From positions 1-17,656 of the forward strand of contig JAWOFP010000064.1 in assembly GCA_046497485.1 (NCBI GenBank): a stretch of 17,656 nt of DNA. The letters are read 5' to 3'. Origin of the DNA: Candidatus Nanohaloarchaea archaeon. Lineage in GTDB: Archaea; Nanohalarchaeota; Nanosalinia; Nanosalinales; Nanosalinaceae. A model generated the notes under the pieces. That model saw only the letters and a list, made by a program, of their open reading frames with translations. It had not been told where the DNA came from and did not search any database. Positions 1 through 17,656 of the stretch are shown here, one piece after another (the stretch's first letter is position 1; every line of letters begins with the position of its first letter). The position numbers and the translations under genes are program-made.

Positions 1-1031
1 TTCATATTTGCCCCAAGCAAGGTTAGATAAATATTCTGAATCCCTAAGTCTGGTAGTTGGAGTCCTACAGCTGATGTCTGGAGAATGAAACTGTATAATG
101 ATTGAGCCACGCCTGTAAAGACCATTACGAAGGAAGTAATAATTAGAGCTGGCATAATTACGAGCATAGGGAGCTGTAGAGTTCCAAAGTAGCCATATTT
201 CTTGTTGAAAAACATTTCTTTATACTTCCAACCGTTGTAAATAAATCCACGCGACCATCTTACTCTCTGATTATATAGACCTTTGAAAGTAGCCGGAAAA
301 TCAGTGTAAGAGCTGTCAAAATAAATCATCTCGAACATCTTGCCGCTTTTTCTAAGCTTGAACGCCATTTCAAGATCTTCAGTCAAATTTCCTACATCAA
401 ACCCTCCAACACTTTTCACATCAGAAGTTCTGTAGATAGAAAACGCTCCAGGAGTAACATTCAATGTATTAATTTCTGTCATCAGCATCCTATAGAAGTT
501 TGTAAGCTGATACTCAACCGTTTGAAGTCTTCTAATAAAATTATCGGCTTTAAGAGGCTTAATTGAAGCAATAACAGCTCCAAGGCCTTTATCATTTTCC
601 ATATTGGTAACTGCTTTGTACAGTAGCTGGTTCTCAATCTTTGAGTCAGCATCCTGAACAACGACATAATCTCCTGAGGCCTCTTCCAACCCAGTGTTCA
701 GAGCCGCGGCTTTCCCTTTGTTAACTTCGTGTTCAAGAATATTTATTTTGTCAGAGGCGTATTTTTTCGCTTTTTCCAAGGTGTCATCTGTAGAGGCATC
801 ATTTACGAAAAGTACATCATAATCAGGATAATCTAGTTCTTTAACAGAGTTCAAGGCCTCTTCAACTACCTCTGACTCGTTATATGCAGGCATCAAAATT
901 GTGACAGAAGGGTAACTTTCCAGCTCTTCTACTTTTTCTTCTCTGTCTTTTACAGAAGAGTAAATACTTAGATAGAATACTGATAGGAACACTGATGAAA
1001 ATATGAGCAGCCATGCGATGTAAAGTATCAT
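1..1031 (-). CDS. Processive GT2-family glycosyltransferase (cellulose synthase/PgaC-IcaA-like), 3' end beyond the window edge
   Basis: Absent from the ORF track because it has no stop inside the window. Translated by hand from ATG 1031, it stays open for 343 codons: N-terminal TM (MILYIAWLLIFSSVFLSVFYL), PSVTILMPAYNE, VNDASTD, NKGKAAALN, QDAD, TED and QRVRW (the D,D,D,QxxRW signature), followed by hydrophobic segments. Confidence 0.9.
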   Translation of the reverse strand, partial: MILYIAWLLIFSSVFLSVFYLSIYSSVKDREEKVEELESYPSVTILMPAYNESEVVEEALNSVKELDYPDYDVLFVNDASTDDTLEKAKKYASDKINILEHEVNKGKAAALNTGLEEASGDYVVVQDADSKIENQLLYKAVTNMENDKGLGAVIASIKPLKADNFIRRLQTVEYQLTNFYRMLMTEINTLNVTPGAFSIYRTSDVKSVGGFDVGNLTEDLEMAFKLRKSGKMFEMIYFDSSYTDFPATFKGLYNQRVRWSRGFIYNGWKYKEMFFNKKYGYFGTLQLPMLVIMPALIITSFVMVFTGVAQSLYSFILQTSAVGLQLPDLGIQNIYLTLLGANM

Positions 1032-1035
1032 AGAT

Positions 1036-2232
1036 TTAGTTCTTCATGATCTCTCTTAGGAATACTGTTGCGTAGCATCCCTTCGGAAGATCAAAGCTTA
1101 CAGTCATCTTATTCCTCCCCATATTCAAGTCATCGTCTTCAACTTCTAAAATATCAAAGTTCCTGAAGTCAGCGAACGCCCTTCTGTAGCTGCCTTCACT
1201 TCTAAGTTCCGGTAGCTCCTGCATCCTGAAGTCTTCCTGAGAGACCCCTTCTTCTTCAAGCACTTCTTTCATCAAGTTCTCAGGCCTGTTGTCCTTTAGA
1301 TCTGTTTTGTAACCTACAAGAGGGATTTCATATTTCTCATCATACCATCCTTCCTCAACCAGCTGGGACAGAACTTTGTTGTAGACCCATGACTGATATG
1401 CATGAATAAACAATGTTTGTAGGCCTTCAGGCAGCCTTTTGATAGCTCCTTTGTAGTCTCCCGGATTTTTAGTTAAATGGTATAGAAGAGATTTCTCATG
1501 GTTGAATTTTTCAGGTATTCTTTCTGCAGCGCCCTCTACTTCACGAGTTTCCCACAGATCCTTCCTGACCTTTCTAATAGATTTATACTCTGATTCATAC
1601 GGCTTAGCAATATATGTCCAGACTGCTTCCTCATAATTTCCTCTAAGTAGAAGTCTTCCTACTTGATGGGTGATAGGCCTAGCGCTCCCGAATCTCTGTC
1701 TTCCAAAGTAGTTAGGCATCTTGCCGTCCATCTTTTCTACAGTTTTCAGAGAAGTATTACGGATATTTTCAATCGGAAGCATCAGATCTCTAACAGTGAT
1801 TTCAAATCTGTTAGCCATCAGGTTTCCGAGGCCTATATGACCTCCTTTTCCTATAACTTCTAGATCAAATTCATCTGTGAAAACTTGGTTTACATCCTCT
1901 TCTTCTACACCTTTGATAGAAATATACTGTTCTGTAACTGCCCTTTTATCCTTGTTTCCTGCGTAACCAATTCGTTTCCGAGAAATATGCAGCATCTTAG
2001 AAAGCTTGTTTATAGCCTGTAAAGTAGTCATGTTCTGCTTTCGCAGCTTTACAATTAGATGCTCTCCTTCTCCATCAGTATCATGCTTTGCAAGCTCCTG
2101 AACTATAAAATCGTTTACCTGCTCTTTAATCTCTCCGCTTATTCCAGGCGTATCAGTATAGTGAGCCCAGTCCATATCTGTTAAGTCCAGTTCTGCAAAT
2201 TCTTCAACTTCTTCTTCCTGTTCTTGATTCAT
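1036..2232 (-). CDS. truD: tRNA pseudouridine(13) synthase TruD
   Basis: Motifs DFIVQE, YAGNKDKRAVTEQ (catalytic Asp), GNLMANRFEITVR, PNYFGRQRFG and C-terminal FDLPKGCYATVFLREIMK. Its ATG overlaps the pth2 stop (ATGA). Confidence 0.95.
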   Translation of the reverse strand: MNQEQEEEVEEFAELDLTDMDWAHYTDTPGISGEIKEQVNDFIVQELAKHDTDGEGEHLIVKLRKQNMTTLQAINKLSKMLHISRKRIGYAGNKDKRAVTEQYISIKGVEEEDVNQVFTDEFDLEVIGKGGHIGLGNLMANRFEITVRDLMLPIENIRNTSLKTVEKMDGKMPNYFGRQRFGSARPITHQVGRLLLRGNYEEAVWTYIAKPYESEYKSIRKVRKDLWETREVEGAAERIPEKFNHEKSLLYHLTKNPGDYKGAIKRLPEGLQTLFIHAYQSWVYNKVLSQLVEEGWYDEKYEIPLVGYKTDLKDNRPENLMKEVLEEEGVSQEDFRMQELPELRSEGSYRRAFADFRNFDILEVEDDDLNMGRNKMTVSFDLPKGCYATVFLREIMKN

Positions 2233-2573
2233 TTAACCAATGTCAACTCCGAAGTAATCTTATCAATTTTTGATGATTCTGCCGGTCCTAGGCCTAGAGC
2301 CGTTGCGGTTCCAGGCTCGACTTCAGTATGGCCGGCATCTTTTACTTTGTAATGAGGTATATTAAGTCTTTCAGCACCCATAATCAAATCTTGGAAGCTT
2401 TTCTCACCCTTATCAAGTATAATTTTCTTAGCGCCCTGTGAACCCCAGTCTTTTCTCAAATCTTCATCCACTTTTTTATATGCGTTAAGCGATGCGTGTG
2501 AGGCCTGAGCTGCTAATTTACCTTTGCTCATCCCCAGAGATTCATCGATTACAATCACTTGTTTTAAATCCAT
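2229..2573 (-). CDS. pth2: Peptidyl-tRNA hydrolase, archaeal/eukaryotic Pth2 type
   Basis: KQVIVI..LGMSKGKLAAQASHAS, KKIIL, DAGHTEVEPGTATALGLGP; 114 aa. Confidence 0.95.
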   Translation of the reverse strand: MDLKQVIVIDESLGMSKGKLAAQASHASLNAYKKVDEDLRKDWGSQGAKKIILDKGEKSFQDLIMGAERLNIPHYKVKDAGHTEVEPGTATALGLGPAESSKIDKITSELTLVK

Positions 2574-2666
2574 TTTAGTCCTAGAGCACCCACAACTAAA
2601 TACTTACATCCAATATTTATTTACCTTTCGGTGATAAATACCTCTAATTGTTATTTGGATACGCTA

Positions 2667-2740
2667 TGGGTTCGCCCAGATTCGAACTGGGGATCTTCGC
2701 CTTGTAAGGGCGACGTCATAACCAACTAGACCACGAACCC
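2667..2740 (-). tRNA. tRNA-Val(UAC), intronless, CCA not encoded
   Basis: Reverse complement folds as GGGTTCG-TG-GTC TAGTTGGTTAT GAC-G-TCGCC CTTACAA GGCGA-AGATC-CCCAG TTCGAAT CTGGG-CGAACCC-A. Anticodon TAC, discriminator A. Confidence 0.97.
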
Positions 2741-2763
2741 GCATTATAGGCCTTTCAATGAAG

Positions 2764-2771
2764 CTTTAAAA
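2764..2771 (-). promoter_or_regulatory. TATA box of tRNA-Val
   Basis: TTTTAAAG at -31..-24 from the mature tRNA 5' end. Confidence 0.6.
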
Positions 2772-2780
2772 GACCGTCCA

Positions 2781-5700
2781 TCAAATCTCCTGATCAAGTA
2801 TAGGATCAAAAACCTTATCTTCAGACTTAAAGTAAGGATAATAAACCCTATAAACTTTCCCAGAGTACTCGGACTCCACAGAGCTCTTCTCAACATTATA
2901 ATCAATCAAATCATCCGCTACAACAGCATCTTCTTCTCTTTCGACTTCTAAAACCGATTCAACAGCCTCACCCTCGCTCACCAAACCTTTCTCCTCTAAA
3001 GAATCGATTCTTGTCGAAACCTTAGCCAAACTGATGCCTAACTCATCGGAAATACCAGCTTGGTCGAGGCCTTCACTCAAAAGATCTAAAACTTCGTCCT
3101 CAGATTCAGAAGGCTTCTCACGAGAGGCCTTAATCTCTCCTTTGACACCATCAATTAGAACTTCTTTTTCATCTGTATCTACAAGATAGAGAGGATAGTA
3201 AGCAGTAGCAAATTTCTCTCCATAGGTAGATTCTATCTCCTGAATATCTTTAAGCGGAGAGAAAAATTCAATATCTTTCTGCTCTACATAAGTATCGGCT
3301 GTCTGAGTCTCTCCACCATGCATGGACTTTCTCACTCTTACATCCGTCATCACCGGATAATCATTTCCGAGCAGAAATGCGACTCCAGGCGGCAACGACT
3401 TAATCATATCCTCCACCTCAGAAGTAACACCTTCAAACGACTTTGAAATAGCCTTCAAATCATTAGGATTAGTAACCCGTAGAATAAACTGAGTATTAGC
3501 CTGAGAAAGCACATTCTTATCGATTCGAGCAGGCCTCTGAGAAATAACTCCGATACCCAATCCAAATTTACGTCCTTCCGAAGCAATCTTCCTCATAATC
3601 GGATTTGAGACCGCTTGGCCAAAGCCTTTCTCAGGCACAAAGTTATGAGCCTCCTCAATCACCATGATAAACGGAGGAATCCTATTCTTCTTCCTTAAAT
3701 CGAACAATTTCTTTGCCAGCATGTAAGCAGTCATTTCAGTTGGCTCAGGCTCAACTGCCTTCAAATTAATTATAGTGGCTCTTCCTGGCTCCACTAAATC
3801 CTTGAGATCGATGGGATTTTCTGAGAACAGGCCTGACTCCTCAAGCTGCTCCAAGTAATTTAGTAAGTTCCATTTAGCAGTAGAATCTTCCTGACTTACA
3901 GCATCCTGAATATCCAGCAAATTATAATCGTCTTCTTTATCTTTCAAGTGCTTTAAAGCATTGTAAAGCACCCCCATCTGTGAATTAGTCAATGAATCCG
4001 GAATCAGTGTAGTAAGCTCTTTTTTATCCAAGTTCACAGATGAAAACTGTAGTGGTAAGGCCTCACGATTAATATCGGTATTAGGAGAGTATTCCTTTAC
4101 TTCATAACTATCAGGCTCATCGCTGTCCGGATTAGGCTTTTTCAAAGAAGAGTACTCTCCGTGAGGATCCAAGACCAGTACAGGAAAATCTGCTTCAAGC
4201 ATCTCCTCAATTAAAACTCCCACAGTGTAGCTATTATGAGACACTATACCTCCTCTTCCCGCAATAAAGTTATGATGATCTCTAACTGTGATATCGTAAA
4301 CATATCCATCATGACTTACTTCTTCAATTGATACTATCTTATCCCAAAATAAATCTGAGTCCGCCAGATTTGAATAGAGCTCAGAGTCCAAATGCTCGGA
4401 CATTTCGCTCATTTTTTCTCTTGCAGGCCTTCTCTCATTACGTTCATAGAGCGAGATAAGTGTGGAATGAACTCCAATTTTCTCTCCTAGCTTAGCTTGA
4501 GAAAGACCTAGTTTACTTCTTTCCTTCTTTAGATACTCTCCTTCAACAGGGATCACATCGACATTTGTGTTGCCTTCCTTGGTCGCAAGATAATTCTCCA
4601 ATCTTTCTTGCTTCCTATCGATTCCAAAACCTATTTGTTTTGAAAATCTCTGCATCTGCTTAACTCCGCTGATAGCTATCCGATAGTAAATATCGCCTTC
4701 GTGATCGGAATTAGTTGCTTGCTTTTCACGGGAAGAGATTCTAGAGACAATGCCAAATTCCAAAAGCATGTAGCTTATCTGATTAATCATTTCCTCACTA
4801 GCAGAAGACAAAGTAATCTCATGATCCTCCATAGAACCCTCGCAGTCAAAGAAAGCTCGTAAAAACTTTCTCTTAGGCCTCCTAGATGAAGTCATTACGC
4901 ACTTAGGAACGGATTTTGACCTTGATTTCTGCAAAGTTTCATATCCAACTTCCTCCAGAAAGTGTTTTAATGAAATAGAGTCTATATACGAAGCATTTTT
5001 TCTCATTTTTGACGGTTCAAGATTAAAGAGCTCTGAGCCAAGCTCCTCAAACTTCTTCATCAAACCTTCGTTATTGTTTGTGAAAATAATCCTATAACTA
5101 TTCTCTTGTTGCTCAGTACCCTCTGCCAGGATTAGCGCCAGAAATTCTGTTAGATCTGCATTAATATACTTAGGAGTATTTAAGGCCTTCATTCTTTCTC
5201 CTATAACAAATCCTTGTCCAACCTCAGGCCTACTCCCTTGGTATTTCCATTTTTCTAAAGTGCTCTTGTTCACTCCCAGTTTTTCCGATATTCTGGATAC
5301 TGAGCTTTCATCTTCTACAAGTTCTTTAAATTCGTCAAAATTCTTGGCAAGCTTCTGCCTTCTCTCATTTTCAGAATCTATCTTGTTTGTAATATCTTCA
5401 GAGAACTGGATATTATCAGTTGATTTAAAATCTGTTTTACGAGGAACCGCAACATGCATCCCTTCATCCACTTCTGAGGCCTCAACAAAATCGTAACTAT
5501 TCTCTGCAACCATCAATGGATGTTCCTCTGTTACTTCTATCTCTCTACCAGACTCAGTCTTAATCCTTAAAATTTTATCACACTTTTTACGGTATGCATA
5601 AACTGCGTCTGCATCTACAATTTCAAATTCGTCATTAACGGCCTTAATAGAGCAATCATTAACTGTTCTAAGCTCTTCATCTTCGGACTCCTTAACAGTT

Positions 5701-6182
5701 GAATTAGAATTTTCAAAAATTTTCTTAATGTTCTTCAATGACCCATCACTCATTAAAATATCTGTATCAGGAGTTACGCACTTCCCTGCTCCGGTTTGGG
5801 CTAAGACCGCAAAATGCTTGTAGAAGTCGTCAGGATCTACCATTATGTCTATATCTGGATTAGTTTCCAAGTTACCGACTCTAAGGCCTTTCTCATTCAG
5901 TCCTAAAGTATCGGAGATAAGTTCTTGATCCGCTTCATAGATGATTGAGTCAGGATCTATAACATGTCTAGGAGCTCTTGTAAGGCCTTTATCCCTATAT
6001 CCAATTATATTTGCGGTAGCTGTTGTTTCTCCGTCTTTATGTTTAGTTACTTGATCAACTTGAGCTAAAATCCATTTATCGTTGCTTTTCACTGATACAA
6101 AGTCGAATTTCCCTACTTTTTCAGTCGCTCTGAACTTGAAAGAAGAGGTGTTTACATCGCCTTCAATTACTCCTACTTGCAT
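2781..6182 (-). CDS. HerA/DUF87-family (FtsK-HerA) ATPase precursor containing an intein; spliced product about 617 aa with a C-terminal winged-helix extension
   Basis: N-terminal HAS-barrel-like region; KHFAVLAQTGAGK|SYT Walker A split by the intein; VLVLDPHGEY; Walker B MVIEEAHNF; IASEGRKFG; ISQRPA; LSQANTQ. Confidence 0.9.
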   Translation of the reverse strand: MQVGVIEGDVNTSSFKFRATEKVGKFDFVSVKSNDKWILAQVDQVTKHKDGETTATANIIGYRDKGLTRAPRHVIDPDSIIYEADQELISDTLGLNEKGLRVGNLETNPDIDIMVDPDDFYKHFAVLAQTGAGKCVTPDTDILMSDGSLKNIKKIFENSNSTVKESEDEELRTVNDCSIKAVNDEFEIVDADAVYAYRKKCDKILRIKTESGREIEVTEEHPLMVAENSYDFVEASEVDEGMHVAVPRKTDFKSTDNIQFSEDITNKIDSENERRQKLAKNFDEFKELVEDESSVSRISEKLGVNKSTLEKWKYQGSRPEVGQGFVIGERMKALNTPKYINADLTEFLALILAEGTEQQENSYRIIFTNNNEGLMKKFEELGSELFNLEPSKMRKNASYIDSISLKHFLEEVGYETLQKSRSKSVPKCVMTSSRRPKRKFLRAFFDCEGSMEDHEITLSSASEEMINQISYMLLEFGIVSRISSREKQATNSDHEGDIYYRIAISGVKQMQRFSKQIGFGIDRKQERLENYLATKEGNTNVDVIPVEGEYLKKERSKLGLSQAKLGEKIGVHSTLISLYERNERRPAREKMSEMSEHLDSELYSNLADSDLFWDKIVSIEEVSHDGYVYDITVRDHHNFIAGRGGIVSHNSYTVGVLIEEMLEADFPVLVLDPHGEYSSLKKPNPDSDEPDSYEVKEYSPNTDINREALPLQFSSVNLDKKELTTLIPDSLTNSQMGVLYNALKHLKDKEDDYNLLDIQDAVSQEDSTAKWNLLNYLEQLEESGLFSENPIDLKDLVEPGRATIINLKAVEPEPTEMTAYMLAKKLFDLRKKNRIPPFIMVIEEAHNFVPEKGFGQAVSNPIMRKIASEGRKFGLGIGVISQRPARIDKNVLSQANTQFILRVTNPNDLKAISKSFEGVTSEVEDMIKSLPPGVAFLLGNDYPVMTDVRVRKSMHGGETQTADTYVEQKDIEFFSPLKDIQEIESTYGEKFATAYYPLYLVDTDEKEVLIDGVKGEIKASREKPSESEDEVLDLLSEGLDQAGISDELGISLAKVSTRIDSLEEKGLVSEGEAVESVLEVEREEDAVVADDLIDYNVEKSSVESEYSGKVYRVYYPYFKSEDKVFDPILDQEI
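4233..5780 (-). mobile_element. Intein (516 aa) with LAGLIDADG homing endonuclease and two HTH-like inserts
   Basis: Begins CVTPDT (block A), has IEVTEEHPL (block B TxxH), FLALILAEG and FLRAFFDCEG (LAGLIDADG blocks C and E), YVYDITV..HHNFIA (block F), and ends SHN before Ser+1 of the extein. Removing it restores GAGKS. Confidence 0.95.
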
Positions 6183-6204
6183 ACTAAATAATCAAATCGA
6201 GAAG

Positions 6205-6212
6205 TTGATAAA
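6205..6212 (-). promoter_or_regulatory. Putative TATA box of the HerA-like gene (leaderless spacing)
   Basis: TTTATCAA at -30..-23 from ATG 6182, with AGGCCT just upstream at 6216-6221. Confidence 0.5.
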
Positions 6213-6257
6213 CTTAGGCCTAAATTCTAGCAAGAGAACAATATTTTTTGTCCAAAT

Positions 6258-7340
6258 CTAATTGATAGTGTTGTCTACTTGCGCTCCTAAAATATATTGT
6301 GCCGCTCCATTCGACTGCCTCCATGATCTAAAGGCAATCCCGCTATGCTCTGAATGAGGATTCGTATTAGAGCTCAATTCCGTCACTTGTGAACCGCCTG
6401 AATCATATATTGTAACAGTATGTGAATCTTCTTCCATCTGCATTTCCAATAAATATCTTTCATCGCTTACGAAACCGATATTATTATCGTAATCTTGTTC
6501 TCCATTCCCTCCTACTTCAAATAAGTATACCTCCTGCGAATCAAAATGGATTCTTACATCATTGTAGTTATTTGTATCCTGCCAATTATAGTTAACCCTT
6601 ACCCTATTATTCCGCGCACTTGTATCATTAGTAGCAAACCATACCTTGAACGTGTCGCCAGTCTCAGGATAATGAGGTCTTCCATCACCAGGATTTGAAT
6701 ATACTCTATCAGCATCCTGCATGTTAAACATTCTAAGCAAGTTGTTTTCTTCTACAGCGGAAACAGTAGATTCAATTGATGTATCCTCTACCGTCTCAAA
6801 ATTACCTATATTCTCATTTCCTGTATCTGTGTAACTTCCATCATCAAAATTTGCTCTTTCAAAATTGTCTACTTCAAGTGAGTCGCCTAAAGTAGTTGAA
6901 TCTTCTGTGAGTTGAAGGCCTCCGGAAATAGTACCTGAGACTGCTAAGTTCTCAAGGACTCCAGTGTCATAAATTATTTCAATATCTAATGTGTTACCGC
7001 TATTTGAAGATTCTACATTTCCTAAGGTTACAGATTCCGAACCTCCTAAGCCTATCTGCTTTTCCGACAATAATTCAGTATATCTGCCCTGTTCATCGGT
7101 AACATTAATCTCTCTTATATTAACGGAATTCCCTGCAGCATTTCTCAATATTAATTCAAAATTATCGTTTGCGGTAACTCCGAAATTATCAACTTGTATA
7201 TCTTGTCCTGTAAAACCGCTTGTAGATTCAACTACTTGATTCCCTACAACGGCAAAAACTGCCCCGCCTACAATAGCTACTACAAGCAGCATCCAACCAT
7301 AAGTCATCAAATACTCAATCGCAGACTGTCCTTTGACCAT
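6258..7340 (-). CDS. Class III signal-peptide (type IV pilin-like) surface protein with an extra C-terminal beta-rich domain
   Basis: MVKG|QSAIEYLMTYGWMLLVVAIVGGAVFAVV: Lys-Gly cleavage site, Gln+1, Glu+5, then a hydrophobic helix. An Ig/pilin-like beta region and an acidic beta-rich C-terminal domain follow. Confidence 0.85.
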   Translation of the reverse strand: MVKGQSAIEYLMTYGWMLLVVAIVGGAVFAVVGNQVVESTSGFTGQDIQVDNFGVTANDNFELILRNAAGNSVNIREINVTDEQGRYTELLSEKQIGLGGSESVTLGNVESSNSGNTLDIEIIYDTGVLENLAVSGTISGGLQLTEDSTTLGDSLEVDNFERANFDDGSYTDTGNENIGNFETVEDTSIESTVSAVEENNLLRMFNMQDADRVYSNPGDGRPHYPETGDTFKVWFATNDTSARNNRVRVNYNWQDTNNYNDVRIHFDSQEVYLFEVGGNGEQDYDNNIGFVSDERYLLEMQMEEDSHTVTIYDSGGSQVTELSSNTNPHSEHSGIAFRSWRQSNGAAQYILGAQVDNTIN

Positions 7341-7409
7341 ACCAAGATATTATTTTAGATTATTAATATAACCCTGCTTTATTTCAAACCTTTGCCACAA
7401 ATACACTTT

Positions 7410-7874
7410 ATGGATTTGAGGGAGAAAATTTCGACACCTGATTTTGATTCAGGCCTTCAAGAAAATCTTTTCTATCTAGGAGTATGCATAGTATTAGTTT
7501 CAGGCCTAGTCACTGCAAATAACATTGTAACTGACGGAGATAAACGAGTAGAGGTCGGGCCTACAGAAGTATTTAACGAGTGTAAAGGCCTAGATGTAGG
7601 AATCTGCCTAGGTATTGAACGACCTAGCCATGTGACATATGACTTTGATGACTACAATGGAACTCCTGAAGAAGGAACAGAAGAATACTACAGAAGAGTT
7701 GAAGCCGAATTAATGCTTCAAGCCTATAATATCTGTGAAGAAGACAGTCTAAGCGATATGGAATGGCTTGATCAGGCAGAGTACGATAACAGGACAGGAT
7801 CTGAATGGTATGAGATGGAAGAAATTGATTTACTTGGATGCGAGCAAACTTTCCGCTTCCAAGTAGATGAATAA
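7410..7874 (+). CDS. Hypothetical single-pass membrane protein with an acidic Cys-containing soluble domain
   Basis: ATG 7410 is preferred over TTG 7392. One TM segment (LFYLGVCIVLVSGLVTA), four Cys after it, and acidic composition like the neighbouring genes. Confidence 0.75.
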   Translation: MDLREKISTPDFDSGLQENLFYLGVCIVLVSGLVTANNIVTDGDKRVEVGPTEVFNECKGLDVGICLGIERPSHVTYDFDDYNGTPEEGTEEYYRRVEAELMLQAYNICEEDSLSDMEWLDQAEYDNRTGSEWYEMEEIDLLGCEQTFRFQVDE

Positions 7875-7878
7875 AAAC

Positions 7879-9727: not shown

Positions 9728-9775
9728 TATATTACAACCCAATTTTAAGCTTTCACAAATTAAAGAATTATTATA

Positions 9776-9781
9776 AGGTGA
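9776..9781 (+). promoter_or_regulatory. Shine-Dalgarno site of ndk
   Basis: AGGTGA 8 nt before ATG 9790, with a TATA-like TTTTAAGC at 9743-9750. Confidence 0.6.
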
Positions 9782-9789
9782 ATTAAATT

Positions 9790-10278
9790 ATGTCAGATCA
9801 AATTGAGAGGACTTTTGTAGCGCTGAAACCTGATACGGTGAAGCGTGGAATCACAGGCAAAATCATTGATATTTTCGAGGAAACCGGTTTCAAAATCGTC
9901 GGTATGAAGATGGTCTGGGCCGATGAAGAGATCCTTCAAGAACATTACAGCGAACATGTGGACAAAGACTTCTATGATAGACTTGAAGAATACATGAGCT
10001 CGGGTCCTATCGTCGCAATAGTGCTTGAAGGAGTCGAAGCTGTCGAGAACTTGAGAAAGATTGTAGGAGAGACAGATCCAAAAGAAGCCGATCCTTCAAC
10101 TATCAGAGGCAAGTTTGCTCACATGAGCTTTGAGCACGCAGACGGAAGCGGAAGACTTCACAAGAACATTATCCATGCTTCAGCAGAGAAAGACGAAGCA
10201 GAAGAAGAGATAAGCATCTGGTTCGACGACGAAGAGCTTCACGATTTCGAATCAGCTCACGAAGAATTCGTTAGATAA
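9790..10278 (+). CDS. ndk: Nucleoside diphosphate kinase
   Basis: ERTFVALKPDTVKRG, HYSEH, YMSSGPIVAIVLEG, LRKIVGET, TIRG, NIIHAS (phospho-His). Confidence 0.97.
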   Translation: MSDQIERTFVALKPDTVKRGITGKIIDIFEETGFKIVGMKMVWADEEILQEHYSEHVDKDFYDRLEEYMSSGPIVAIVLEGVEAVENLRKIVGETDPKEADPSTIRGKFAHMSFEHADGSGRLHKNIIHASAEKDEAEEEISIWFDDEELHDFESAHEEFVR

Positions 10279-10282
10279 CATA

Positions 10283-10305
10283 TTCCTCTTTTCTCATTTT
10301 CTATT
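10283..10305 (+). terminator. Pyrimidine/T-rich archaeal-type terminator of ndk
   Basis: TTCCTCTTTTCTCATTTTCTATT begins 4 nt after the ndk stop. Confidence 0.45.
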
Positions 10306-10350
10306 ACAATTTCAGTAAAAGATTAAACTTTTCAGGCCTAAGTCTTTCTT

Positions 10351-10545
10351 ATGGCAAAGAATAAACTTTACCGTTCGGAAACAGATAAGTGGATTGCAGG
10401 AGTATGCGGAGGAATAGCTGAAGTATACGATGTTGATCCGGCTCTAGTAAGGGTAGCTGCAGTATTACTAGCTTTCACACAGGTTGGAATATTAGCATAC
10501 CTGGCTGCATGGCTGATTATCCCTCATGAATCAGAACTTGAGTAG
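10351..10545 (+). CDS. pspC: PspC-domain membrane protein
   Basis: [31 protein letters not shown] ... YLAAWLIIP is the classic PspC pattern. Confidence 0.92.
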
Positions 10546-10633
10546 GCCGTCAGCACTCAAAATCTAACCCGCAACATATTCTATCCTTATTTTTGTTAGG
10601 CGAGTTAATTCCCGCAGGGTTCATCATCCAGCC
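10545..10633 (-). ncRNA. Box C/D guide sRNA (K-turn), predicted guide for Cm34 of tRNA-Leu(CAA)
   Basis: Minus strand reads GGCUG-G-AUGAUGA (box C, 10621-10627) ... CUGA (box D, 10550-10553)-CGGCC. Terminal stem GGCUG/CGGCC, a 3-nt GAU bulge and tandem G.A pairs give a canonical K-turn. It fills the gap between convergent pspC and pheT almost exactly. Confidence 0.8.
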
Positions 10634-10641
10634 ATTATAAA

Positions 10642-12270
10642 TTAATAGGACTTCTCCAGATTCTCTAAGTCAAGCTCAAAGCCCGAGACATCTACATCAA
10701 GACCCCAGTTATCAGCTACTTTTTCCTTGAACTCACAGATATAGCCGATTTCTTCACCTTCAAGGCAGATCTTGGCAGATCTCTTAGATTTACCATACTC
10801 ATAGTGATCCTCTTCAAGAGCGAATTTCAGGCCTAATGCATTTTCAAGGACTTGTAAGGCCTTTCTTGCTTCAGTATAATCTATATTGCCAGCCTTTAGG
10901 TAGCAGATTTTCTTTTTATTCTCTGCTTCTGGCATCTCGACGACCTCTCCTACTTCAAAGAAAGTCTGCGGATAGCTTTGATGTCTATTTTCTTTAAGTA
11001 CTTCAAAGATAGATGGCGTCATCCAGCTTCGAACAACTTCATAATCCTCAGTCAAAGCGTTAGCCATAGAGGCATGAGGGCTCTCATCGAGCTCCATCTT
11101 ATCAAATAATTTCTCTTTACTGGATAAAGTAAATGTATGCGTTTCCAATGCCCCTGAACCTATCAAGGCCTCTCTAACCACCTTGGAGAACTCCTCTAAT
11201 TCATTCTCCGAGCCTATCTGATCTACCTCCGGTAATTCTGGCTCAATATTATTGTATCTATATGCGATAACGATGTCCTCAATGAGATCATAGCTATGCA
11301 TTATATCAGTTCTGTAGCACGGGACATCCACATCTACTTTCTTTTTAGAGGCTTTAGCACCATAACCCATTGATTCCAGCAGTTCAGCGGCGTCTTTTCC
11401 AGAAAGGTCTAGGCCTGAAACTGAGTTCAAGTACTCGATATCCAAGTCTCTTCTTTCTGGCTCCAGTTTCGGCAGTCTTTCCTCACCTACTTCTAAATTC
11501 TCAAGCTCACCGCCTCTATCGGACAAAGCAGTTGACAAAATATTCAAGGCCTTTTTAACCGTTTCCTGGTCTTTTCCTGTCACATCGATAAATATATCCG
11601 TCGTCTTATGATCGACTTCAGTCAATTGGTTGTTAATGATAGGCGGGAAGCTAAGGACTTGGCCTTTGGAGTCTTCAATTATAGGATATTTTTCTTCGTC
11701 TTCTAGAATCCAAGCGTATTCCTGTCCTTTCTCATGCTCATCGACAATCTGGCCAAGATCCATATCTCTGTCGTATTCAAGAGGCGTGAAAGATACTTTT
11801 TCGGGCTCAACAGCTCTATAAGTAAACGGCGGCTCAAGCTCTGAAAGATCATGAAGACCTATCGCCAGTTTATCTCTTCTACGACCTAAAGTTTCGTGAA
11901 TCTTCTCTTGCAACTGAATCAAACCATTAATAGCTCTTTCATCAAGCTCCAAATCCCTGACTACTGCCGCACCTATTACAGGCCTTACTTCTTCAACCGA
12001 TTCTTCGACTTCAAGCTTCAGTCCTCCTTTCGAAACCTTATATTCTTCTAGGCCTTCTTCTATCCCAAAGTAACGGGAGTAAGCTCTTGCAAGGCCTTCC
12101 ACACTCAATAGATCGGGTCTGTTAGGATATACTTCTACATCCCATTTGACACCTTCGACACGGTTCCAGTGTACTCCTAAATAGGATGCTTCTTCCTCAA
12201 GTTTTTCGTCTTCAATACCTGTTCCGATTAATCTCTCAAACTCATTCTTGTTAATTTCGATGTGTGCCAT
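10642..12270 (-). CDS. pheT: Phenylalanine--tRNA ligase beta subunit (archaeal type)
   Basis: PNRPDLLSVEGLAR, LIQLQEKIH..LGRRR..AIGLHD, LSFPPIIN, PCYRTDIMHSYDLIEDIVIAY. ATG 12270 is preceded by SD GGAGGAGG (12277-12284); the ORF track start at 12273 is the TTG just before it. Confidence 0.96.
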   Translation of the reverse strand: MAHIEINKNEFERLIGTGIEDEKLEEEASYLGVHWNRVEGVKWDVEVYPNRPDLLSVEGLARAYSRYFGIEEGLEEYKVSKGGLKLEVEESVEEVRPVIGAAVVRDLELDERAINGLIQLQEKIHETLGRRRDKLAIGLHDLSELEPPFTYRAVEPEKVSFTPLEYDRDMDLGQIVDEHEKGQEYAWILEDEEKYPIIEDSKGQVLSFPPIINNQLTEVDHKTTDIFIDVTGKDQETVKKALNILSTALSDRGGELENLEVGEERLPKLEPERRDLDIEYLNSVSGLDLSGKDAAELLESMGYGAKASKKKVDVDVPCYRTDIMHSYDLIEDIVIAYRYNNIEPELPEVDQIGSENELEEFSKVVREALIGSGALETHTFTLSSKEKLFDKMELDESPHASMANALTEDYEVVRSWMTPSIFEVLKENRHQSYPQTFFEVGEVVEMPEAENKKKICYLKAGNIDYTEARKALQVLENALGLKFALEEDHYEYGKSKRSAKICLEGEEIGYICEFKEKVADNWGLDVDVSGFELDLENLEKSY

Positions 12271-12307
12271 CAAATTCCTCCTCCTTGAATCTCTAAATTA
12301 TCTAATT

Positions 12308-13693
12308 TCATTTTTCAGGCCTCCAGACAGGAGTCTCTTCCAATATTTCGATATCGTTTCTGTAAAGCTCTCTGATATCTTCGATCCCTGCTGCTTTTGC
12401 TGCGATTCTTCCAAGGCCTAATCCCCAAGCAAGCACTGAGACCTCTTTACCAATCATAGGTTTGACTACTTCAGGCCTGAACATTCCTGCGCCTCCTAAT
12501 CCCATCCATTCGCCGTTGTCTTTTACTTGTACTTCTACGCTCATCTCGGTGTATGGATAGTAGCTTGGGATTAACCTAAATTCTTCATAACCCATCTTCT
12601 CGAAGAATTCCGAAATATATCCTTTCAAGTTCTGGAAGCTTAGATCTTTTCCTACAACTATTCCATCCGTCTGATAGAACTCAGCCAGATGGGTTTTATC
12701 GACTGTCTCATTTCTGAAGTTTCTGGACACAGTGAAGAACTTAGCTGGAAGATCCTCTTCCTCCAGTTCTGAAAGCTTCTGCGCTGAAACAGATGTAGTG
12801 TGAGTCCTCAAAACATTTCTTTCCGCATCCTCACGGCTCCAGTCATAACCCCATCCAGCGCTTCCTGTAGTCCAGCCGTCTTCATGAGTCTGCTTCACAT
12901 GCTCCACTCTTTTGTTGCCTGATTCATTGAACTTTGAGATATCAGCTTTTTCTGGATTATCCATGAAGAATGTATCATGCAGTTCTCTTGCAGGATGATC
13001 CTGAGGAGTATATAATGCGTCAAAGTTCAGGAAGCTTGATACAACAAAATTTCCTTGCATCTCCTTGAAACCCATCTCTCTCCATTGATCTCTTGCGTAG
13101 TCGACAACTTCTTTGTAAAAATGCTTTCTTCCTATCTGCGGCATAGATGCCTCAGCTTCTACATTGAATTCCTCTTCTACATTATCTATTTTTACCTGCT
13201 CTCCTCGCTCCGTAAGTTTCAGAGATTTCTCTGTCTCCGTAACTCTTTCCACCAGGCCTCTATCGACATGATCTGCGCCAAAGTCTTCATCTCTCAACTG
13301 CTGAGCGACTTTATCTTCATCAACAAATTCTCCTTCTTCAGTTAGTCGGACTTCTCCATTTTCTATTTCTATCCAGCCTTTCTGCCTGGCTTTACCTACT
13401 GCGACATCTGCCGGAATATTGATTTCAGAGAAACCTTTTGGCCCGTCTTCCAAAATTTCTACTAACCTGAATTCTGGGCTTCCCTCTCTCATTACAGCCT
13501 TTCCTTTATTTGTTAGAGTGTAGGCAACTTCTTCGTCTCTAATTATCTCTACAAGGCCTTTTTCCTCTAGTTCTTTTGCGGCTCTGGCGATCATCGACTG
13601 GTCAAATCCTTGATCCTCCAGCCTTTCATATCTTATCTCTTCAGAGTTCTTTACCTGTTCAAATACTGTTTTAGCCTGTTGAGAGAGTTTCAC
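12308..13693 (-). CDS. pheS: Phenylalanine--tRNA ligase alpha subunit (archaeal type)
   Basis: NFDALYTPQDHPARELHDTF, VLRTHTT, FRNETVDKTHLAEFYQTDG, YYPYTEMS, GAGMFRPEV, LAWGLGLGR. GTG 13693 is preferred over TTG 13714 because TATAAAAA (13716-13723) sits at -30..-23 from it. Confidence 0.96.
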   Translation of the reverse strand: MKLSQQAKTVFEQVKNSEEIRYERLEDQGFDQSMIARAAKELEEKGLVEIIRDEEVAYTLTNKGKAVMREGSPEFRLVEILEDGPKGFSEINIPADVAVGKARQKGWIEIENGEVRLTEEGEFVDEDKVAQQLRDEDFGADHVDRGLVERVTETEKSLKLTERGEQVKIDNVEEEFNVEAEASMPQIGRKHFYKEVVDYARDQWREMGFKEMQGNFVVSSFLNFDALYTPQDHPARELHDTFFMDNPEKADISKFNESGNKRVEHVKQTHEDGWTTGSAGWGYDWSREDAERNVLRTHTTSVSAQKLSELEEEDLPAKFFTVSRNFRNETVDKTHLAEFYQTDGIVVGKDLSFQNLKGYISEFFEKMGYEEFRLIPSYYPYTEMSVEVQVKDNGEWMGLGGAGMFRPEVVKPMIGKEVSVLAWGLGLGRIAAKAAGIEDIRELYRNDIEILEETPVWRPEK

Positions 13694-13715
13694 ACCAGAG
13701 TTTTGAGGATCCAAT

Positions 13716-13739
13716 TTTTTATAGCAACAGGTTTAATAG
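13716..13739. promoter_or_regulatory. Back-to-back TATA boxes for pheS (-) and the KaiC-like gene (+)
   Basis: TATAAAAA (minus, 13716-13723) and TTTAATAG (plus, 13732-13739), each at -30..-23 from its start codon. Confidence 0.55.
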
Positions 13740-13761
13740 CACAAAACCTCAAATTTAGTTC

Positions 13762-14472
13762 ATGGCTATCGACACCGGTATTGAAGGCCTCGGAGACATG
13801 GTGGAAATACCAGATGATTATACTTTGCTTCTTGGAGGCCCTCCAGGAACCGGTAAGAGTGCATTTGCACTGGACTACCTTTTCGAGGGAGTTCAAAATG
13901 GTGAAAAAGCTCTTTTCATAACTTTAAGAGATTCTAAAGAAGAGATAATGGAAAGTGTTGAGCTACGAGGATATGATTCAAAATCCGAGAACTTCAGAAT
14001 ACAGGAAGCTACAGGTCTGATGCGTGGAAGCAGCGGACAGGTCTTCGAACCAGAAAAAGTAATAGACGGTTTAAGGAGAAACCTGAATAAGTTCGAACCT
14101 GATAGAATCGTAATCGACAGTATTACAAAATTCCTGATGATTTTCGATGCAGAACCTGTTCAGAGAGAAGAGGCCTCCCGTATAGTAGGCCGAATCAAGG
14201 AAAAACAGGCCTCATCCTTGTTTATAGGAGAAGTACCTTACTCAAAAAATGGGCAGCCTTCAAGATATGAAATCATGGAGTTCGTGGTCGATGGAATCTT
14301 CAAGCTTGAGCAATCACAGGATGGAATCATGTTTGAAATTTTGAAGATGAAAGGCCTTGGTTACGATAGAAAAACTAAGAAGGTAGATATTTCAGATAAC
14401 ACAGTTTCTTTAAACAGTTTCAATAAAAGCCGCTCCAATAATGGCGAAGACTCCGACTACGAAGAGCTTTGA
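13762..14472 (+). CDS. Single-domain KaiC/RAD55-like RecA-superfamily ATPase
   Basis: IDTGIEGL, Walker A GPPGTGKS, GEKALFITL, Walker B RIVIDSIT, EFVVDGIFKL, ILKMKG. Confidence 0.88.
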   Translation: MAIDTGIEGLGDMVEIPDDYTLLLGGPPGTGKSAFALDYLFEGVQNGEKALFITLRDSKEEIMESVELRGYDSKSENFRIQEATGLMRGSSGQVFEPEKVIDGLRRNLNKFEPDRIVIDSITKFLMIFDAEPVQREEASRIVGRIKEKQASSLFIGEVPYSKNGQPSRYEIMEFVVDGIFKLEQSQDGIMFEILKMKGLGYDRKTKKVDISDNTVSLNSFNKSRSNNGEDSDYEEL

Positions 14473-15129
14473 TAACTGAATCCAGTGCTCCCAGCTTAAA
14501 TGCTGCCTATAAACCGAAGCTGAAGCAGTTGTACCCAGTATTCCAGCAACTATAAACCCTGTCATTTCTAAAGACGTGTGCGGAAAGTATGCTAGAGGTG
14601 AACTGTTTGATAAAATTATTTCCAAGCCTGTTAAATCGCTTGCAAGCGTTGCAAAGAATACTCCAACCATTGAAGCATTCAGTGAAAGTATGAATGCTCC
14701 TGCAGACCCTAAAAATGCTGATACGCCTAGAATCATTACAAACAATGTCAAGTTATGGCTCGAAACTCCAAGGAATGAGGCATCAAGATTTGTAGCTTGC
14801 CCAGTGAGGCCTGTAGTACTGAGCTGAGTGGTGAAGAACTCAGGCATCAGAAGAGCACCAATAAAGAACGCTGTAACTAGGCCTATAAACAGAGATCCAT
14901 AAGCCATTGTTTCATCCATGAAGTCAGGGTTCTCCTCATACTCGAAATAATAATCCATCAATGGGAACACCATTGGAACCGCTGCAATCATTGGAGCGAT
15001 TAGAGAGGCCTGATCGGTGAAAAAATTGTTAGCTGCCCAGATACCTGTAAGCCCTGAGATTAGGCCTAGAATAGCTAGGGCTTTGTAGTTGTGAGACTCC
15101 TCTTCTCTCAGAATTAATTCTGGCAGCAT
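14410..15129 (-). CDS. SpoIIM-like (stage II sporulation protein M family) integral membrane protein
   Basis: About 6-7 TM segments; HNL, LNASMVG and YFPHTSLEMTGF resemble the SpoIIM PHGxxE motif. TATA TTTAATAT lies at -30..-23. Confidence 0.75.
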   Translation of the reverse strand: MLPELILREEESHNYKALAILGLISGLTGIWAANNFFTDQASLIAPMIAAVPMVFPLMDYYFEYEENPDFMDETMAYGSLFIGLVTAFFIGALLMPEFFTTQLSTTGLTGQATNLDASFLGVSSHNLTLFVMILGVSAFLGSAGAFILSLNASMVGVFFATLASDLTGLEIILSNSSPLAYFPHTSLEMTGFIVAGILGTTASASVYRQHLSWEHWIQLSKLFVVGVFAIIGAAFIETV

Positions 15130-15173
15130 AGAGTTTACTTATCTAAGCCCAATATTAAACTTAAGGCCTGACA

Positions 15174-16328
15174 CTACCTCTTCCTCTCAAGATCGATATT
15201 CCTATCCCACATCTCTTCGGCTAATTCACCGTCATACATCATCTTTTGAACCAGTTCATCAGCGTTCTCCTTTCTTTCCTGATGACCCTCAAGGAAATCG
15301 TTCAGTTCCTCAATCAGAATCTCTTTGATCTCTCCTGTCAACATCTCTCCAGATGAATAGTCCTCGGCGATTTCACGCAGTCTCTCATCATCCTCCATCA
15401 AAAGGTTACGGAGCCACTGGAAAGAGGTATCGACCGATAAATCTGCGCCTTCCGCTCTATGCTCTTCAAGTGTATCGCCCCCACCCGAGTAAGCATGTTT
15501 CTTGACTTTCTTCTCGACTTCTTCAGGAGTATCATCCAGCATGATAGCCGTCTTCGGCTTAGAAGAGCTCATCTTTCCTTCCGGCCCTGTCAATGCAGGG
15601 ATAAACTTGGAGTGAATAGCAGCCGTTTTTTCATGACCAAACTGCTCTGCTATATCTCTTTGAATTCTCCAGTAAGGATCTTGATCAATTGCCGCAGGGA
15701 TAACGCACCTCTTATCTTCAAAGAAAGTCGGGATATTCTGAATAGCAGGCCAGAAATTCATTCCGATATTTGTTGAGCCATCAAATCCAAATACGCCTGA
15801 GGCCTGTGAATTATTCACTTTTTCCGCGATCTTTACGATTCCATCGTACATATTGCCCATGTACTCACGGTTCCTGAAGATAAATGTCTTGTCTGGATCA
15901 AATCCTGCTGCAGCAATCTCTCTAATATTATCTTCTGCATACTCATCGATTTCTTCATCGGTTATTTCGCGGTCCCAGTACTTTTCATCGTCCGTCACCT
16001 GGATATATACATTTACATCGAATTTTTGCTGGATCCATGCCGTGAAGTAGAAGCTAACTATATGACCAATATGCATAGGGCCTGAAGGACCTACACCTGT
16101 GTAGAGGAAAAATCCATCTCCTTCCTCATACTCTTCTAATGCTTTGTCGAGGCCTCGATGCGAGTAGATGAAATCTCGATCAACATATAGATTACTTTCT
16201 CCAGCAAGTTCGAAGAACTTCTGCTTCAGCTCTTCGTCAATCTCTTCTGTCCCGAATTTATCTATTAGTCTATCGTAATCTACTTGCCCTTCCACATCGA
16301 AAGGTGTCACATCAAAGTCCTCTGGCAT
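15174..16328 (-). CDS. trpS: Tryptophan--tRNA ligase (archaeal/eukaryotic type)
   Basis: VTPFDVEG.VDYDRLIDKFG, LYTGVGPSGPMHIGH, IQVTDDEK, AIDQDPYWR, KMSSS, AYSGG. Confidence 0.97.
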   Translation of the reverse strand: MPEDFDVTPFDVEGQVDYDRLIDKFGTEEIDEELKQKFFELAGESNLYVDRDFIYSHRGLDKALEEYEEGDGFFLYTGVGPSGPMHIGHIVSFYFTAWIQQKFDVNVYIQVTDDEKYWDREITDEEIDEYAEDNIREIAAAGFDPDKTFIFRNREYMGNMYDGIVKIAEKVNNSQASGVFGFDGSTNIGMNFWPAIQNIPTFFEDKRCVIPAAIDQDPYWRIQRDIAEQFGHEKTAAIHSKFIPALTGPEGKMSSSKPKTAIMLDDTPEEVEKKVKKHAYSGGGDTLEEHRAEGADLSVDTSFQWLRNLLMEDDERLREIAEDYSSGEMLTGEIKEILIEELNDFLEGHQERKENADELVQKMMYDGELAEEMWDRNIDLERKR

Positions 16329-16374
16329 TTTTTGAATTCCTCTGAAAAGAAGTTCCCTCCAAATTTTGAAATAA

Positions 16375-17133
16375 CTACTCGTTAAACTTGGAGGCCTTAT
16401 GCCCTAGCACACCATCATAACCATTTGTGGACATCAAGACCGGATAGAAATCTTCTTCCGCAATTAATTCCTCATTATCTCTCCTTGCGTAAACCTCTCC
16501 CTTCTCAACTTTCTGGAAGTTTTCTTTCAGGAATCTCCAATCGCCTTCAACCTTCTCTTTTTGAACAAACAGTTCAGGATCCGAGGCCTCAAACTCTGCA
16601 TCTATAACGCCAAAGTAGGCTAAAAAGTTCTCTATAACATTTACAGCATTTTCAACCGCTTGATCGCTGTGCTGAGTTCCCGCTTCAACCACTACCCCTG
16701 TCGCAAAATCAGTCAGAGTCCCTGAATCTTCCTCAAACTTTACAGCATAATCAGCTCCAGAGGCCTGAATCATCTCCATCTCAGGATCTTCAAAGCTTTT
16801 AGTATTCGCAAAAGGCCTGTCAAAAGAATGAGTAGTATGAATATCCAGGACTTTTGACGCCCCTATCTCGCTCAAAAGTTTAGCAGCCAATCTTTCCTCT
16901 CTTTGATCTGAATCAATATCTCCAGGAAAACTACGGTTCAGATCCGTGTCCAAGAATCTTTCATCTTCTTCCAAGGCCTCTTCGTTTGCGATTATAAATT
17001 TTACAGCTTTATTGTACTTTAGATCTTTTTCAAGAACATTTTTTATTGCTTTCTTTCCTGCAGGTTCGTCTCCGTGAATCGATCCTATTATTGTGAATTC
17101 TATCTCTCCAGTTCCACGAGTCTCTACCTTCAT
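16375..17133 (-). CDS. Succinylglutamate desuccinylase/aspartoacylase (M14-like Zn deacylase) family protein
   Basis: HGDE Zn ligands, DLNRSFPG, VLDIH, VEAG. TATA TTTAAATA lies at -30..-23. Confidence 0.88.
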   Translation of the reverse strand: MKVETRGTGEIEFTIIGSIHGDEPAGKKAIKNVLEKDLKYNKAVKFIIANEEALEEDERFLDTDLNRSFPGDIDSDQREERLAAKLLSEIGASKVLDIHTTHSFDRPFANTKSFEDPEMEMIQASGADYAVKFEEDSGTLTDFATGVVVEAGTQHSDQAVENAVNVIENFLAYFGVIDAEFEASDPELFVQKEKVEGDWRFLKENFQKVEKGEVYARRDNEELIAEEDFYPVLMSTNGYDGVLGHKASKFNE

Positions 17134-17169
17134 ACTTTAGAATAAAGTTTGAGAATATTTAAACACTTT

Positions 17170-17656
17170 TCAAATGTCCAAGGCTTCTACTGCTGGAAGT
17201 TCTCCTCCAGAAACGCATCTTACAAAGGCGCCTCCAGCAATCGAGACATGGTCAAAGTCATCCATAGAGTAGCCGAATTCTTTGACAAGTGAGGATGTAT
17301 GGCCTCCGCCCATTACAGTGAATCCTTCACAGTTTTTCAAGGCCTCTAAAATTTTCTCAGTGCCTTCAGAATGTTCTTCAAAAGCTCCCATTGGCCCTTT
17401 CATCAATGCAGAATCGGCTTCTTCAATTATTTCAGCGTATCTTTCACTTGTTTCCTCTCCTATATCCCAAGACATTTCTTCTACATCTTCAGGCCTTTTA
17501 TCGCCGTCTTCTGTCACTAGATCTGAAGGGAGCTCAAATTTCTCAGGGTGTTCTTCAATTAAATCTTTCAGCTGTTTTTTTTTGGAGTCAAGGCCTCTTT
17601 CTTCTATCCATTCTCCTTTTTCTCCTAAGTCTTCTCCTTGAGCAAGTAATGCGACT
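17170..17656 (-). CDS. pgk: Phosphoglycerate kinase, 3' part (5' end beyond the window edge)
   Basis: The frame stays open upstream of the ORF-track GTG to the edge (VALLAQGEDLG...FELPSDLVTEDG). WDIG, KGPMGAFE, MGGGHT and HVSIAGGAF..GGELPAVEAL are archaeal PGK C-terminal motifs. Confidence 0.92.
   Translation of the reverse strand, partial: VALLAQGEDLGEKGEWIEERGLDSKKKQLKDLIEEHPEKFELPSDLVTEDGDKRPEDVEEMSWDIGEETSERYAEIIEEADSALMKGPMGAFEEHSEGTEKILEALKNCEGFTVMGGGHTSSLVKEFGYSMDDFDHVSIAGGAFVRCVSGGELPAVEALDI

Follow-up and report, generated by a model that had tools for sequence, protein, structure and literature searches.

The window considered here is a whole stretch of 17,656 bp, contig JAWOFP010000064.1 of Candidatus Nanohaloarchaea archaeon (assembly GCA_046497485.1). 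It is assigned to the Nanohaloarchaea on account of its acidic proteins and of the source labels attached to related proteins and records; the organism is a tiny salt-loving symbiotic archaeon. Dispersed over genes and spacers is the perfect palindrome AGGCCT (Table 1). It was counted 62 times, in agreement with the figure of about 62 given in an earlier note on this DNA, and the 17 GGCC tetramers reported there outside the hexamer were found as well, which makes 79 GGCC in all; the runner-up palindromic hexamer has 17 copies. With 2.6 copies expected from base composition, or 4.2 from a first-order Markov model, the excess is 15-24-fold. The strong enrichment claimed earlier, put at about 25-fold over about 2.5 expected copies, is confirmed.

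According to our own gene calls, the copies within genes are distributed over the three codon phases as 12, 18, and 25 and lie on both strands. Seven copies are found outside the calls, three of which fall into an open reading frame (ORF) missed by the caller (14410-15129), leaving four intergenic copies; occurrence in all phases, on both strands, and between genes is as had been described. The gene names used here were assigned from sequence or motifs and not from family scans. We take two core genes to encode PheRS beta and alpha, and a further one presumably encodes a HerA-like ATPase with an intein, the latter apparently comprising a homing-endonuclease-like part and a helix-turn-helix. 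Since the intein as well as both exteins carry AGGCCT, the word is not restricted to core sequence. In contigs of related strains, about 4210-4230 is followed directly by about 5780, this intein being absent; relatives match its flanks only. The tRNA gene listed is a probable one, visible as a conserved multi-hit stretch only.

Table 1. AGGCCT copies and selected genes of the window
Feature	Position	Strand	Remarks
AGGCCT, 62 dispersed copies, perfect palindrome	583..17596		mean spacing 279 bp; closest pair 28 bp; no conserved extension past six bases
AGGCCT starts 1-16	583, 677, 854, 1282, 1421, 1675, 1829, 2290, 2501, 2748, 3067, 3125, 3531, 3829, 4058, 4425
AGGCCT starts 17-32	4875, 5183, 5226, 5477, 5884, 5983, 6216, 6916, 7451, 7502, 7586, 8270, 9176, 10334, 10829, 10857
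AGGCCT starts 33-48	11166, 11411, 11547, 11980, 12050, 12092, 12317, 12414, 12473, 13254, 13554, 13785, 14171, 14207, 14352, 14807
AGGCCT starts 49-62	14879, 15006, 15062, 15164, 15800, 16150, 16392, 16584, 16761, 16813, 16974, 17340, 17491, 17591
Intergenic AGGCCT	2748..2753		between probable tRNA gene (about 2666-2741) and ORF 2781-6182
Intergenic AGGCCT	6216..6221		between ORF 2781-6182 and ORF 6258-7340
Intergenic AGGCCT	10334..10339		3' of ORF 9790-10278 in window coordinates
Intergenic AGGCCT	15164..15169		between ORF 14410-15129 and ORF 15174-16328
Two core genes, presumably PheRS beta and alpha	10642..13714	-	12 AGGCCT copies; phylogenetic marker
Gene presumed to encode HerA-like ATPase with intein	2781..6182	-	12 AGGCCT copies, in both exteins and intein

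The genome-wide excess and its spacing

The genome of the window, in which the latter is contig C10 (G000; 967,558 bp in 66 contigs, 97% complete, 1,144 genes by our own calls), contains 3,249 AGGCCT, about one per 300 bases, at 1.8-5.8 per kb on each of the 66 contigs. The ratio of observed to expected copies (O/E) is 21 for base composition, 14.8 for a first-order Markov model, and 6.4 for a second-order model that is itself trained on AGGCCT. The flanks are near background composition, so that the word is a pure hexamer, with a weak A/T preference 2-4 bases outside of it. Its density is 3.3 per kb inside genes versus 3.5 between genes and is similar in divergent, tandem, and convergent spacers (3.5-4.0 per kb); no trend along gene length is found, and conserved genes are occupied to a similar extent as accessory ones (0.57-0.80). 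The coding copies (515, 1,010, and 1,422 by phase) amount to 2,947 versus 380-444 in ten within-gene synonymous shuffles, a 7-fold excess, and non-coding DNA holds 284 copies versus 16 expected (18-fold). A codon-conditional model, describing synonymous choice with codon and junction terms, yields a weight of 4.20 ± 0.04 for the perfect word, which is a fixation bias of e^4.2, about 67-fold; the weight is -0.51 ± 0.09 in G024, a closed genome of a relative low in AGGCCT. One-mismatch words weigh 0.4-1.2 in G000, and those without GGCC lie just 0.2-0.5 above G024. The excess is real, strong, genome-wide, and seated at the DNA level; it is left by the synonymous shuffles, the codon-conditional model, and the non-coding DNA alike, and codon or dipeptide bias is insufficient to explain it, as had been argued from the window.

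Places permissive for the word are close to saturation, with 2,698 of 4,027 (67%) filled in G000, 3,698 of 4,943 in the closed high genome G010, and 592 of 981 in 300 kb of the closed high genome G022; the figure for G024 is 79 of 2,329 (3.4%). Each of the three phases is 65-78% filled, all synonymous routes into AGGCCT being used. Permissive peptides occur at 1.4-2.0 times the level of amino-acid shuffles in G000 and G010, and at 0.8-1.0 times that level in G024. In 445 orthologue triples, residues that the two other genomes conserve are replaced at a rate of 0.10-0.15 at six control words and no more often at AGGCCT (0.10, 0.135), so that the proteome is bent at variable, not at conserved, positions. 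Acting on some 4,000 positions and doubling permissive peptides, a force of this size (about 67-fold) matters for symbiont phylogeny and codon analyses. The one-transition neighbours, which had been described as undepleted, are so overall (O/E 0.95-1.01), but in the phase synonymous with AGGCCT three of the four are depleted (AGACCT 0.32, AGGCTT 0.53, AAGCCT 0.62; AGGTCT, at 1.14, is not).

Close pairs of sites are avoided. Permissive places 6-20 bp from another site are filled at 0.25, not 0.64, in G000 and at 0.48, not 0.73, in G010, and the control words AGATCT, GAAGAA, and AAGCTT show no such neighbour exclusion. On the logit scale, G000 has a deficit of -2.5 at 6-10 bp, -1.1 at 18-24 bp, about -0.6 at 24-42 bp, -0.4 at 50-80 bp, and approximately zero from 80-100 bp. 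In 200 within-gene permutations of G000, 59 pairs at 6-30 bp compare with 124 ± 7 and 282 pairs at 31-80 bp with 344 ± 12, no permutation being that low, while pairs at 81-150 bp are as expected (530 versus 536); G010 shows the same exclusion. An exponential kernel gains 83 (G000) and 118 (G010) log-likelihood units at lengths of 33 bp and 49 bp, respectively, to which a 10.5-bp helical term adds at most 1.1 units in either genome. This scale of 30-50 bp is the length that any mechanism must reproduce, and the exclusion favours a putative DNA-binding reader that saturates over a few tens of bases. Avoidance of hairpins or slippage was rejected as its cause, close direct or inverted pairs of GC-rich 6-mers having an O/E of 0.65-1.12 with no trend.

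On a larger scale, AGGCCT per kb is under-dispersed (variance/mean 0.76 and 0.85), and long gaps, of up to 13.4 kb (G022) and 5.5 kb (G010), fall into foreign-looking islands. Spacing periodicity, suggested for testing in the earlier note, was not found: after correction no period of 10-90 kb is left in closed G010, the method being simpler than that of Xu et al. A 74.6-kb peak in the raw counts of this genome was discarded, since it is shared by G+C content and does not reach the 95% null in realised, permissive, or residual counts.

Distribution among nanohaloarchaeal genomes and candidate readers

Among 70 genomes of the phylum, 12 are high in AGGCCT (2.0-4.75 per kb), G004 has 0.95 per kb, and 57 have at most 0.69, the genome sizes of relatives being rounded in these counts. 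All 12 high genomes belong to the family of the window, namely four of five in g1 (including G000), three of three each in g7 and g19, and two of six in g2; high and low sisters live within one genus. In a FastTree phylogeny of PheT plus PheS from 30 genomes (11 of 41 were left out, the loci lacking), the high genomes occupy three places, with G010 beside low G024 at a support of 0.99, and in a tree of 29 RPA sequences they occupy four. From these trees, the high state would be present in at least three separate lineages; their deep branches have poor resolution, and repeated gain of the word is as compatible with the data as a single gain followed by many losses. G004, which is nested among high genomes, retains 11 of 64 aligned sites of G003, and 15 now read AGGTCT or AGACCT; it looks as if this genome were losing AGGCCT by decay. 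Four pairs of high genomes share 137 of 171 jointly permissive sites, a count in which re-creation and conservation of sites are not separable because occupancy is 65-80% anyway. Comparison of the window with contigs of four runs yielded 40 of 5,060 differences, a number insufficient for testing polymorphism.

Low G024 avoids GGCC and has a C5 methyltransferase gene adjoining that of an NgoPII-family endonuclease (L002 / L203). A near-identical pair occurs in G020 (L001), and the two are among the three genomes poorest in AGGCCT. At one E/S-G-L position in the N-terminus of RPA (L223-L252), ten of ten high genomes as well as G004 have E-G-L written as AGGCCT, and 16 of 18 low genomes have S-G-L. 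G000 carries two EndoQ-like (TIGR00375) copies (C31:2168-3376 and C12:4688-5896), which share 80% identity with the G010 counterpart (L127:1688-2902), well in excess of the core average; similar closeness is seen for CRISPR I-B genes and others, and this suggests gene exchange between the high lineages of G000 and G010. Two non-coding stretches of G000 (C39:2385-2490 and C25:10237-10323) are conserved in G010 and were not found in G024 by tblastn; at the G010 counterpart of the second, ARAGORN recognized no tRNA or tmRNA.

For a protein reading the word, whole G000 and G010 were compared with whole G024, giving 107 candidate rows; 56 proteins were scanned against Pfam and about ten tested across genomes, genes lost in high genomes being filtered with one low genome. 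The EndoQ-like protein was rejected because it is absent from G005 and G022, and the RadA allele because G022 has the type of the low genome. Two RadA types exist in the family, one shared by G000 (C52:1154-2098) and G010 (87%), the other by G022 and G024. DUF2582 (in five of five genomes) and the histone do not track the trait. Also rejected were Ogt (in 26 of 50 genomes), an AbrB-like protein (28 of 50), a 115-amino acid gene beside RadB (49 of 50), and NucS (48 of 50, with no residue separating ten high from 12 low genomes), while Ogg, the PolB2 cassette, DinB/PolIV, and DnaG failed a presence/absence or sequence test. For two further candidates of unknown identity, atlas look-ups gave nothing beyond DUF6309 and PHP-like leads. 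Pilin-like clusters, named from motifs, are present in G000 and G010.

Proposed molecular drive and competing explanations

Our tentative reading, to which a probability of roughly 0.4 is given, is that AGGCCT is a highly iterated palindrome (HIP) made by molecular drive through short exchange or repair tracts. A putative sequence-specific reader would recognize the perfect hexamer in double-stranded DNA; a palindromic site suggests a dimeric binder, and the reader would probably be homodimeric. It would bias which version of the DNA is kept, either upon exchange or uptake of fragments with recombination or in short-patch repair of heteroduplexes. One AGGCCT would suffice per tract of a few tens of bases, a second one nearby gaining less. 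The drive would be independent of methylation and act on all resident DNA, filling synonymous room first and nudging variable amino acids, and it would be gained and lost lineage by lineage, with sites decaying once it is lost. Since the pull extends to all six positions and to every phase, a single-mismatch glycosylase or Vsr-type enzyme would be insufficient, and the smooth exclusion, with neither step nor helical phase, would be better fitted by a distribution of tract or fragment lengths than by a fixed footprint. Saturation by neighbours is a prediction of Elhai's ratchet model (PMC4390886), and accumulation by drive is described for uptake sequences (PMC1939737).

Several observations weigh against this reading. 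No reader was found among the candidates tested. DprA is absent from the five genomes examined for it, ComEC not having been searched. Whether an orthologous site is occupied is correlated between distant high genomes (0.80 versus 0.60), which points to some site-specific constraint, and the exclusion is weak and non-significant in 300 kb of G022 (20 versus 25 pairs, with counts as low in 12 of 200 permutations). Around sites, a halo or a shift would be expected from a general repair-strand signal; eight high pairs show no halo of lower synonymous divergence at shared sites (residuals within 0.011 of zero, standard error 0.007-0.016), in a test of low power because about half of the synonymous codons already differ, and there is no GC3 shift past about 20 bp from AGGCCT. 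The uptake sequences described are non-palindromic 9-10-mers (PMC1939737), and equilibrium statistics cannot separate drive from selection.

Selection is the essence of a second, somewhat less probable explanation, according to which AGGCCT would be the binding site of an abundant chromatin or replication protein, with approximately one anchor per few hundred bases and close second sites being redundant or clashing. The uniform, under-dispersed coverage and the weak A/T preference outside the word would suit such a protein, and selection and a nucleoid role have been argued for HIP1 by Xu et al. (PMC5861425). A candidate would be a small winged-helix protein encoded beside histone and RPA genes, the top eight matches of which are all in high genomes. 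It was, however, rejected as reader, since it occurs in 38 of 50 genomes and low G023, G051, and G052 share the same recognition helix; the histone, DUF2582, and AbrB-like proteins do not follow the trait either. Moreover, the exclusion has no step and no helical phase, no long-range period exists, and sisters of the same genus live without AGGCCT. In closed low G024, the winged-helix gene (C1:18343-18567) looks degraded.

It is unlikely that AGGCCT is the first archaeal DNA-exchange signal, with short AGGCCT fragments being picked by a methylation-independent, horizontally mobile reader, possibly a surface beta-propeller related to PF09826. If so, the lineages sharing the word would form a private gene-exchange community whose genomes are rewritten by molecular drive. 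The membrane-anchored PF09826 beta-propeller is found in high G005, G010, G022, G049, and G057 and in low G015, G017, and G046, with a divergent related form in G000 and G001, not in G002-G004 or G060. It occurs in seven of 12 high versus three of 38 other genomes of the family (Fisher P 7e-4, uncorrected, with about a hundred candidates in play and kin not independent). One clade (support 1.0) consists only of high genomes and three AGGCCT-rich metagenome contigs, named nanohaloarchaeal records not being counted as independent. On the other hand, five high genomes (75-89% complete) are without a match, 12 of 20 genomes of other families low in AGGCCT have the family, and the G000 form lies outside the high-only clade. 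The structural model is poor (mean pLDDT 58.6) and matches generic propellers, the fold giving no hint of DNA binding. The beta-propeller is the only candidate fitting the trait and no more than a lead.

Similarly unlikely is a self-mark read by a defence, host- or virus-side protein encoded outside the fixed chromosomal genes, such as on a plasmid, in a provirus, or in the haloarchaeal host. It would account for the failure of the chromosomal genes tested, a minority of the candidates, to follow the trait, and it would agree with the islands free of AGGCCT and with the GGCC avoidance and NgoPII-like restriction system of some low genomes. The exclusion at 30-50 bp is not obviously predicted by it, and two AGGCCT occur among the 22 CRISPR spacers of G010 (P about 0.02 for 802 bp), which weakly hints that invaders may carry the word too. 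In a viral scan, the eight richest of at least 121 stretches (80 with long flanks) were inspected, and none looked halophilic. Three AGGCCT-rich, non-halophilic phage contigs, L295 (20 in 6.1 kb), L310 (14 in 6.1 kb), and L331 (10 in 3.2 kb), have a broader GGCC excess within which this richness sits; the L310 terminase resembles those of Lactobacillus phages.

Still less probable is an Elhai-type ratchet, close to the methylation-directed system considered in the earlier note, where a cognate methyltransferase would mark AGGCCT and steer mismatch repair, so that new sites are fixed and old ones protected. It shares the prediction of neighbour saturation, AGGCCT-specific methylation is known in a bacterium (PMC12128166), and NucS is widespread in the genomes compared. 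G000 has a single C5 methyltransferase; it lies beside an McrB-like ATPase, however, on the 4.9-kb contig with the lowest AGGCCT density (1.83 per kb). PF00145 (C5 methyltransferase) has no match in closed high G005, G010, and G022 or in G001-G004, PF01555 none over the cut-off in G000, G005, and G010, N4/N6 enzymes do not track the trait, and 20 diverse methyltransferase queries yielded just a truncated type IIG-like gene in G010; the scope of this search is the families named and the assembled replicons. NucS does not distinguish high from low genomes by any residue, and its bacterial homologue is reported to act without flanking-sequence preference (PMC6159521). The methylation-directed system is not borne out in the closed high genomes.

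An artefact of codons, dipeptides, or assembly, suggested by the fact that AGGCCT spells the common halophile peptides EGL, EAS, and RP, can practically be dismissed in view of the 7-fold and 18-fold excesses given above, its presence on all contigs, 11 other assemblies as rich (12 independent ones in all), and three metagenome contigs, two of them near-identical, enriched 22-29-fold.

Relation to known systems

The closest known counterparts are HIP1 (GCGATCGC) and the alternate HIPs of cyanobacteria (Elhai 2015, PMC4390886; Xu et al. 2018, PMC5861425). As described there, they are likewise perfect palindromes, over-represented 15-fold or more, up to about one per 300-350 bases, present in all frames and between genes, and patchy among relatives. 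AGGCCT differs in being an archaeal (nanohaloarchaeal) hexamer that is neither GCGATCGC nor a described variant, in the absence of a cognate methyltransferase from the searches and of a 10-90 kb period after correction, in an exclusion at 30-50 bp versus the scale of about 1 kb in Elhai's model, and in the recurrence of the same word in separate lineages. High abundance of HIP1 is presented by Xu et al. (PMC5861425) as unknown outside cyanobacteria and its cause as unresolved. No published description of the AGGCCT feature was found in the literature searched, supplements and subscription journals being outside its scope; for one nanohaloarchaeon, methylation of GDGCHC is reported, and the main texts mention neither AGGCCT nor GGCC (PMC11001535, PMC10266531). 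A second, archaeal HIP-like case is thereby at hand, with 1-Mb genomes, high and low sisters in one genus, apparent decay, and closed genomes in which no cognate methyltransferase was found, and with such sisters the HIP question becomes testable by gene-content comparison, methylome reads, and pull-down. The view of AGGCCT as a HIP1-like word in an archaeon holds genome-wide, in all phases and in spacers, and the interpretation given in the earlier note is partly supported; acting like a HIP and lacking the methyltransferase and periodicity features of HIP1, the word is best filed as a new archaeal variant.

The uptake sequences of Pasteurellaceae and Neisseriaceae (PMC1939737) resemble it in being genome-wide where coding allows and in having reshaped permissive peptides; molecular drive, proposed here for AGGCCT, is the explanation given for them, and an even spacing is claimed. 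As described in the same source, these non-palindromic sequences have a lower density, are often paired in terminators, and are served by a known competence machine. AGGCCT, unlike them, is a pure hexamer with close pairs avoided, and DprA was not found in five genomes. RAATTY of Campylobacter, a methylated self-mark for transformation, is also a palindromic, very frequent hexamer, and it is tied to DNA exchange; unlike AGGCCT, it requires a methyltransferase and is degenerate, A+T-rich, and bacterial. In C. coli, 99.7% of 28,482 RAATTY sites are methylated (PMC8627207). Restriction-modification directed at AGGCCT or GGCC, as in A. borkumensis (PMC12128166) and the NgoPII family (PF09521), concerns the same word or its core and is accompanied by counts that are ordinary or low (A. 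borkumensis has 1,674 sites, and G024 avoids GGCC). As opposed to such type II targets, AGGCCT is enriched, and neither the methyltransferase nor the endonuclease genes were found in high genomes.

Some other words are avoided in G000, namely ACGT (O/E 0.49), GTTAAC and GTCGAC (0.49), and GTCAAC/GTTGAC (0.60), which likely constitutes a restriction footprint. In the window, positions 7254-7340 are the 5' end of a pilin-like surface-protein gene; in G004 there are a dozen look-alikes of this stretch of about 80 bp, and among metagenome contigs it has many loose ends, pointing to a gene family with a common signal-peptide end.

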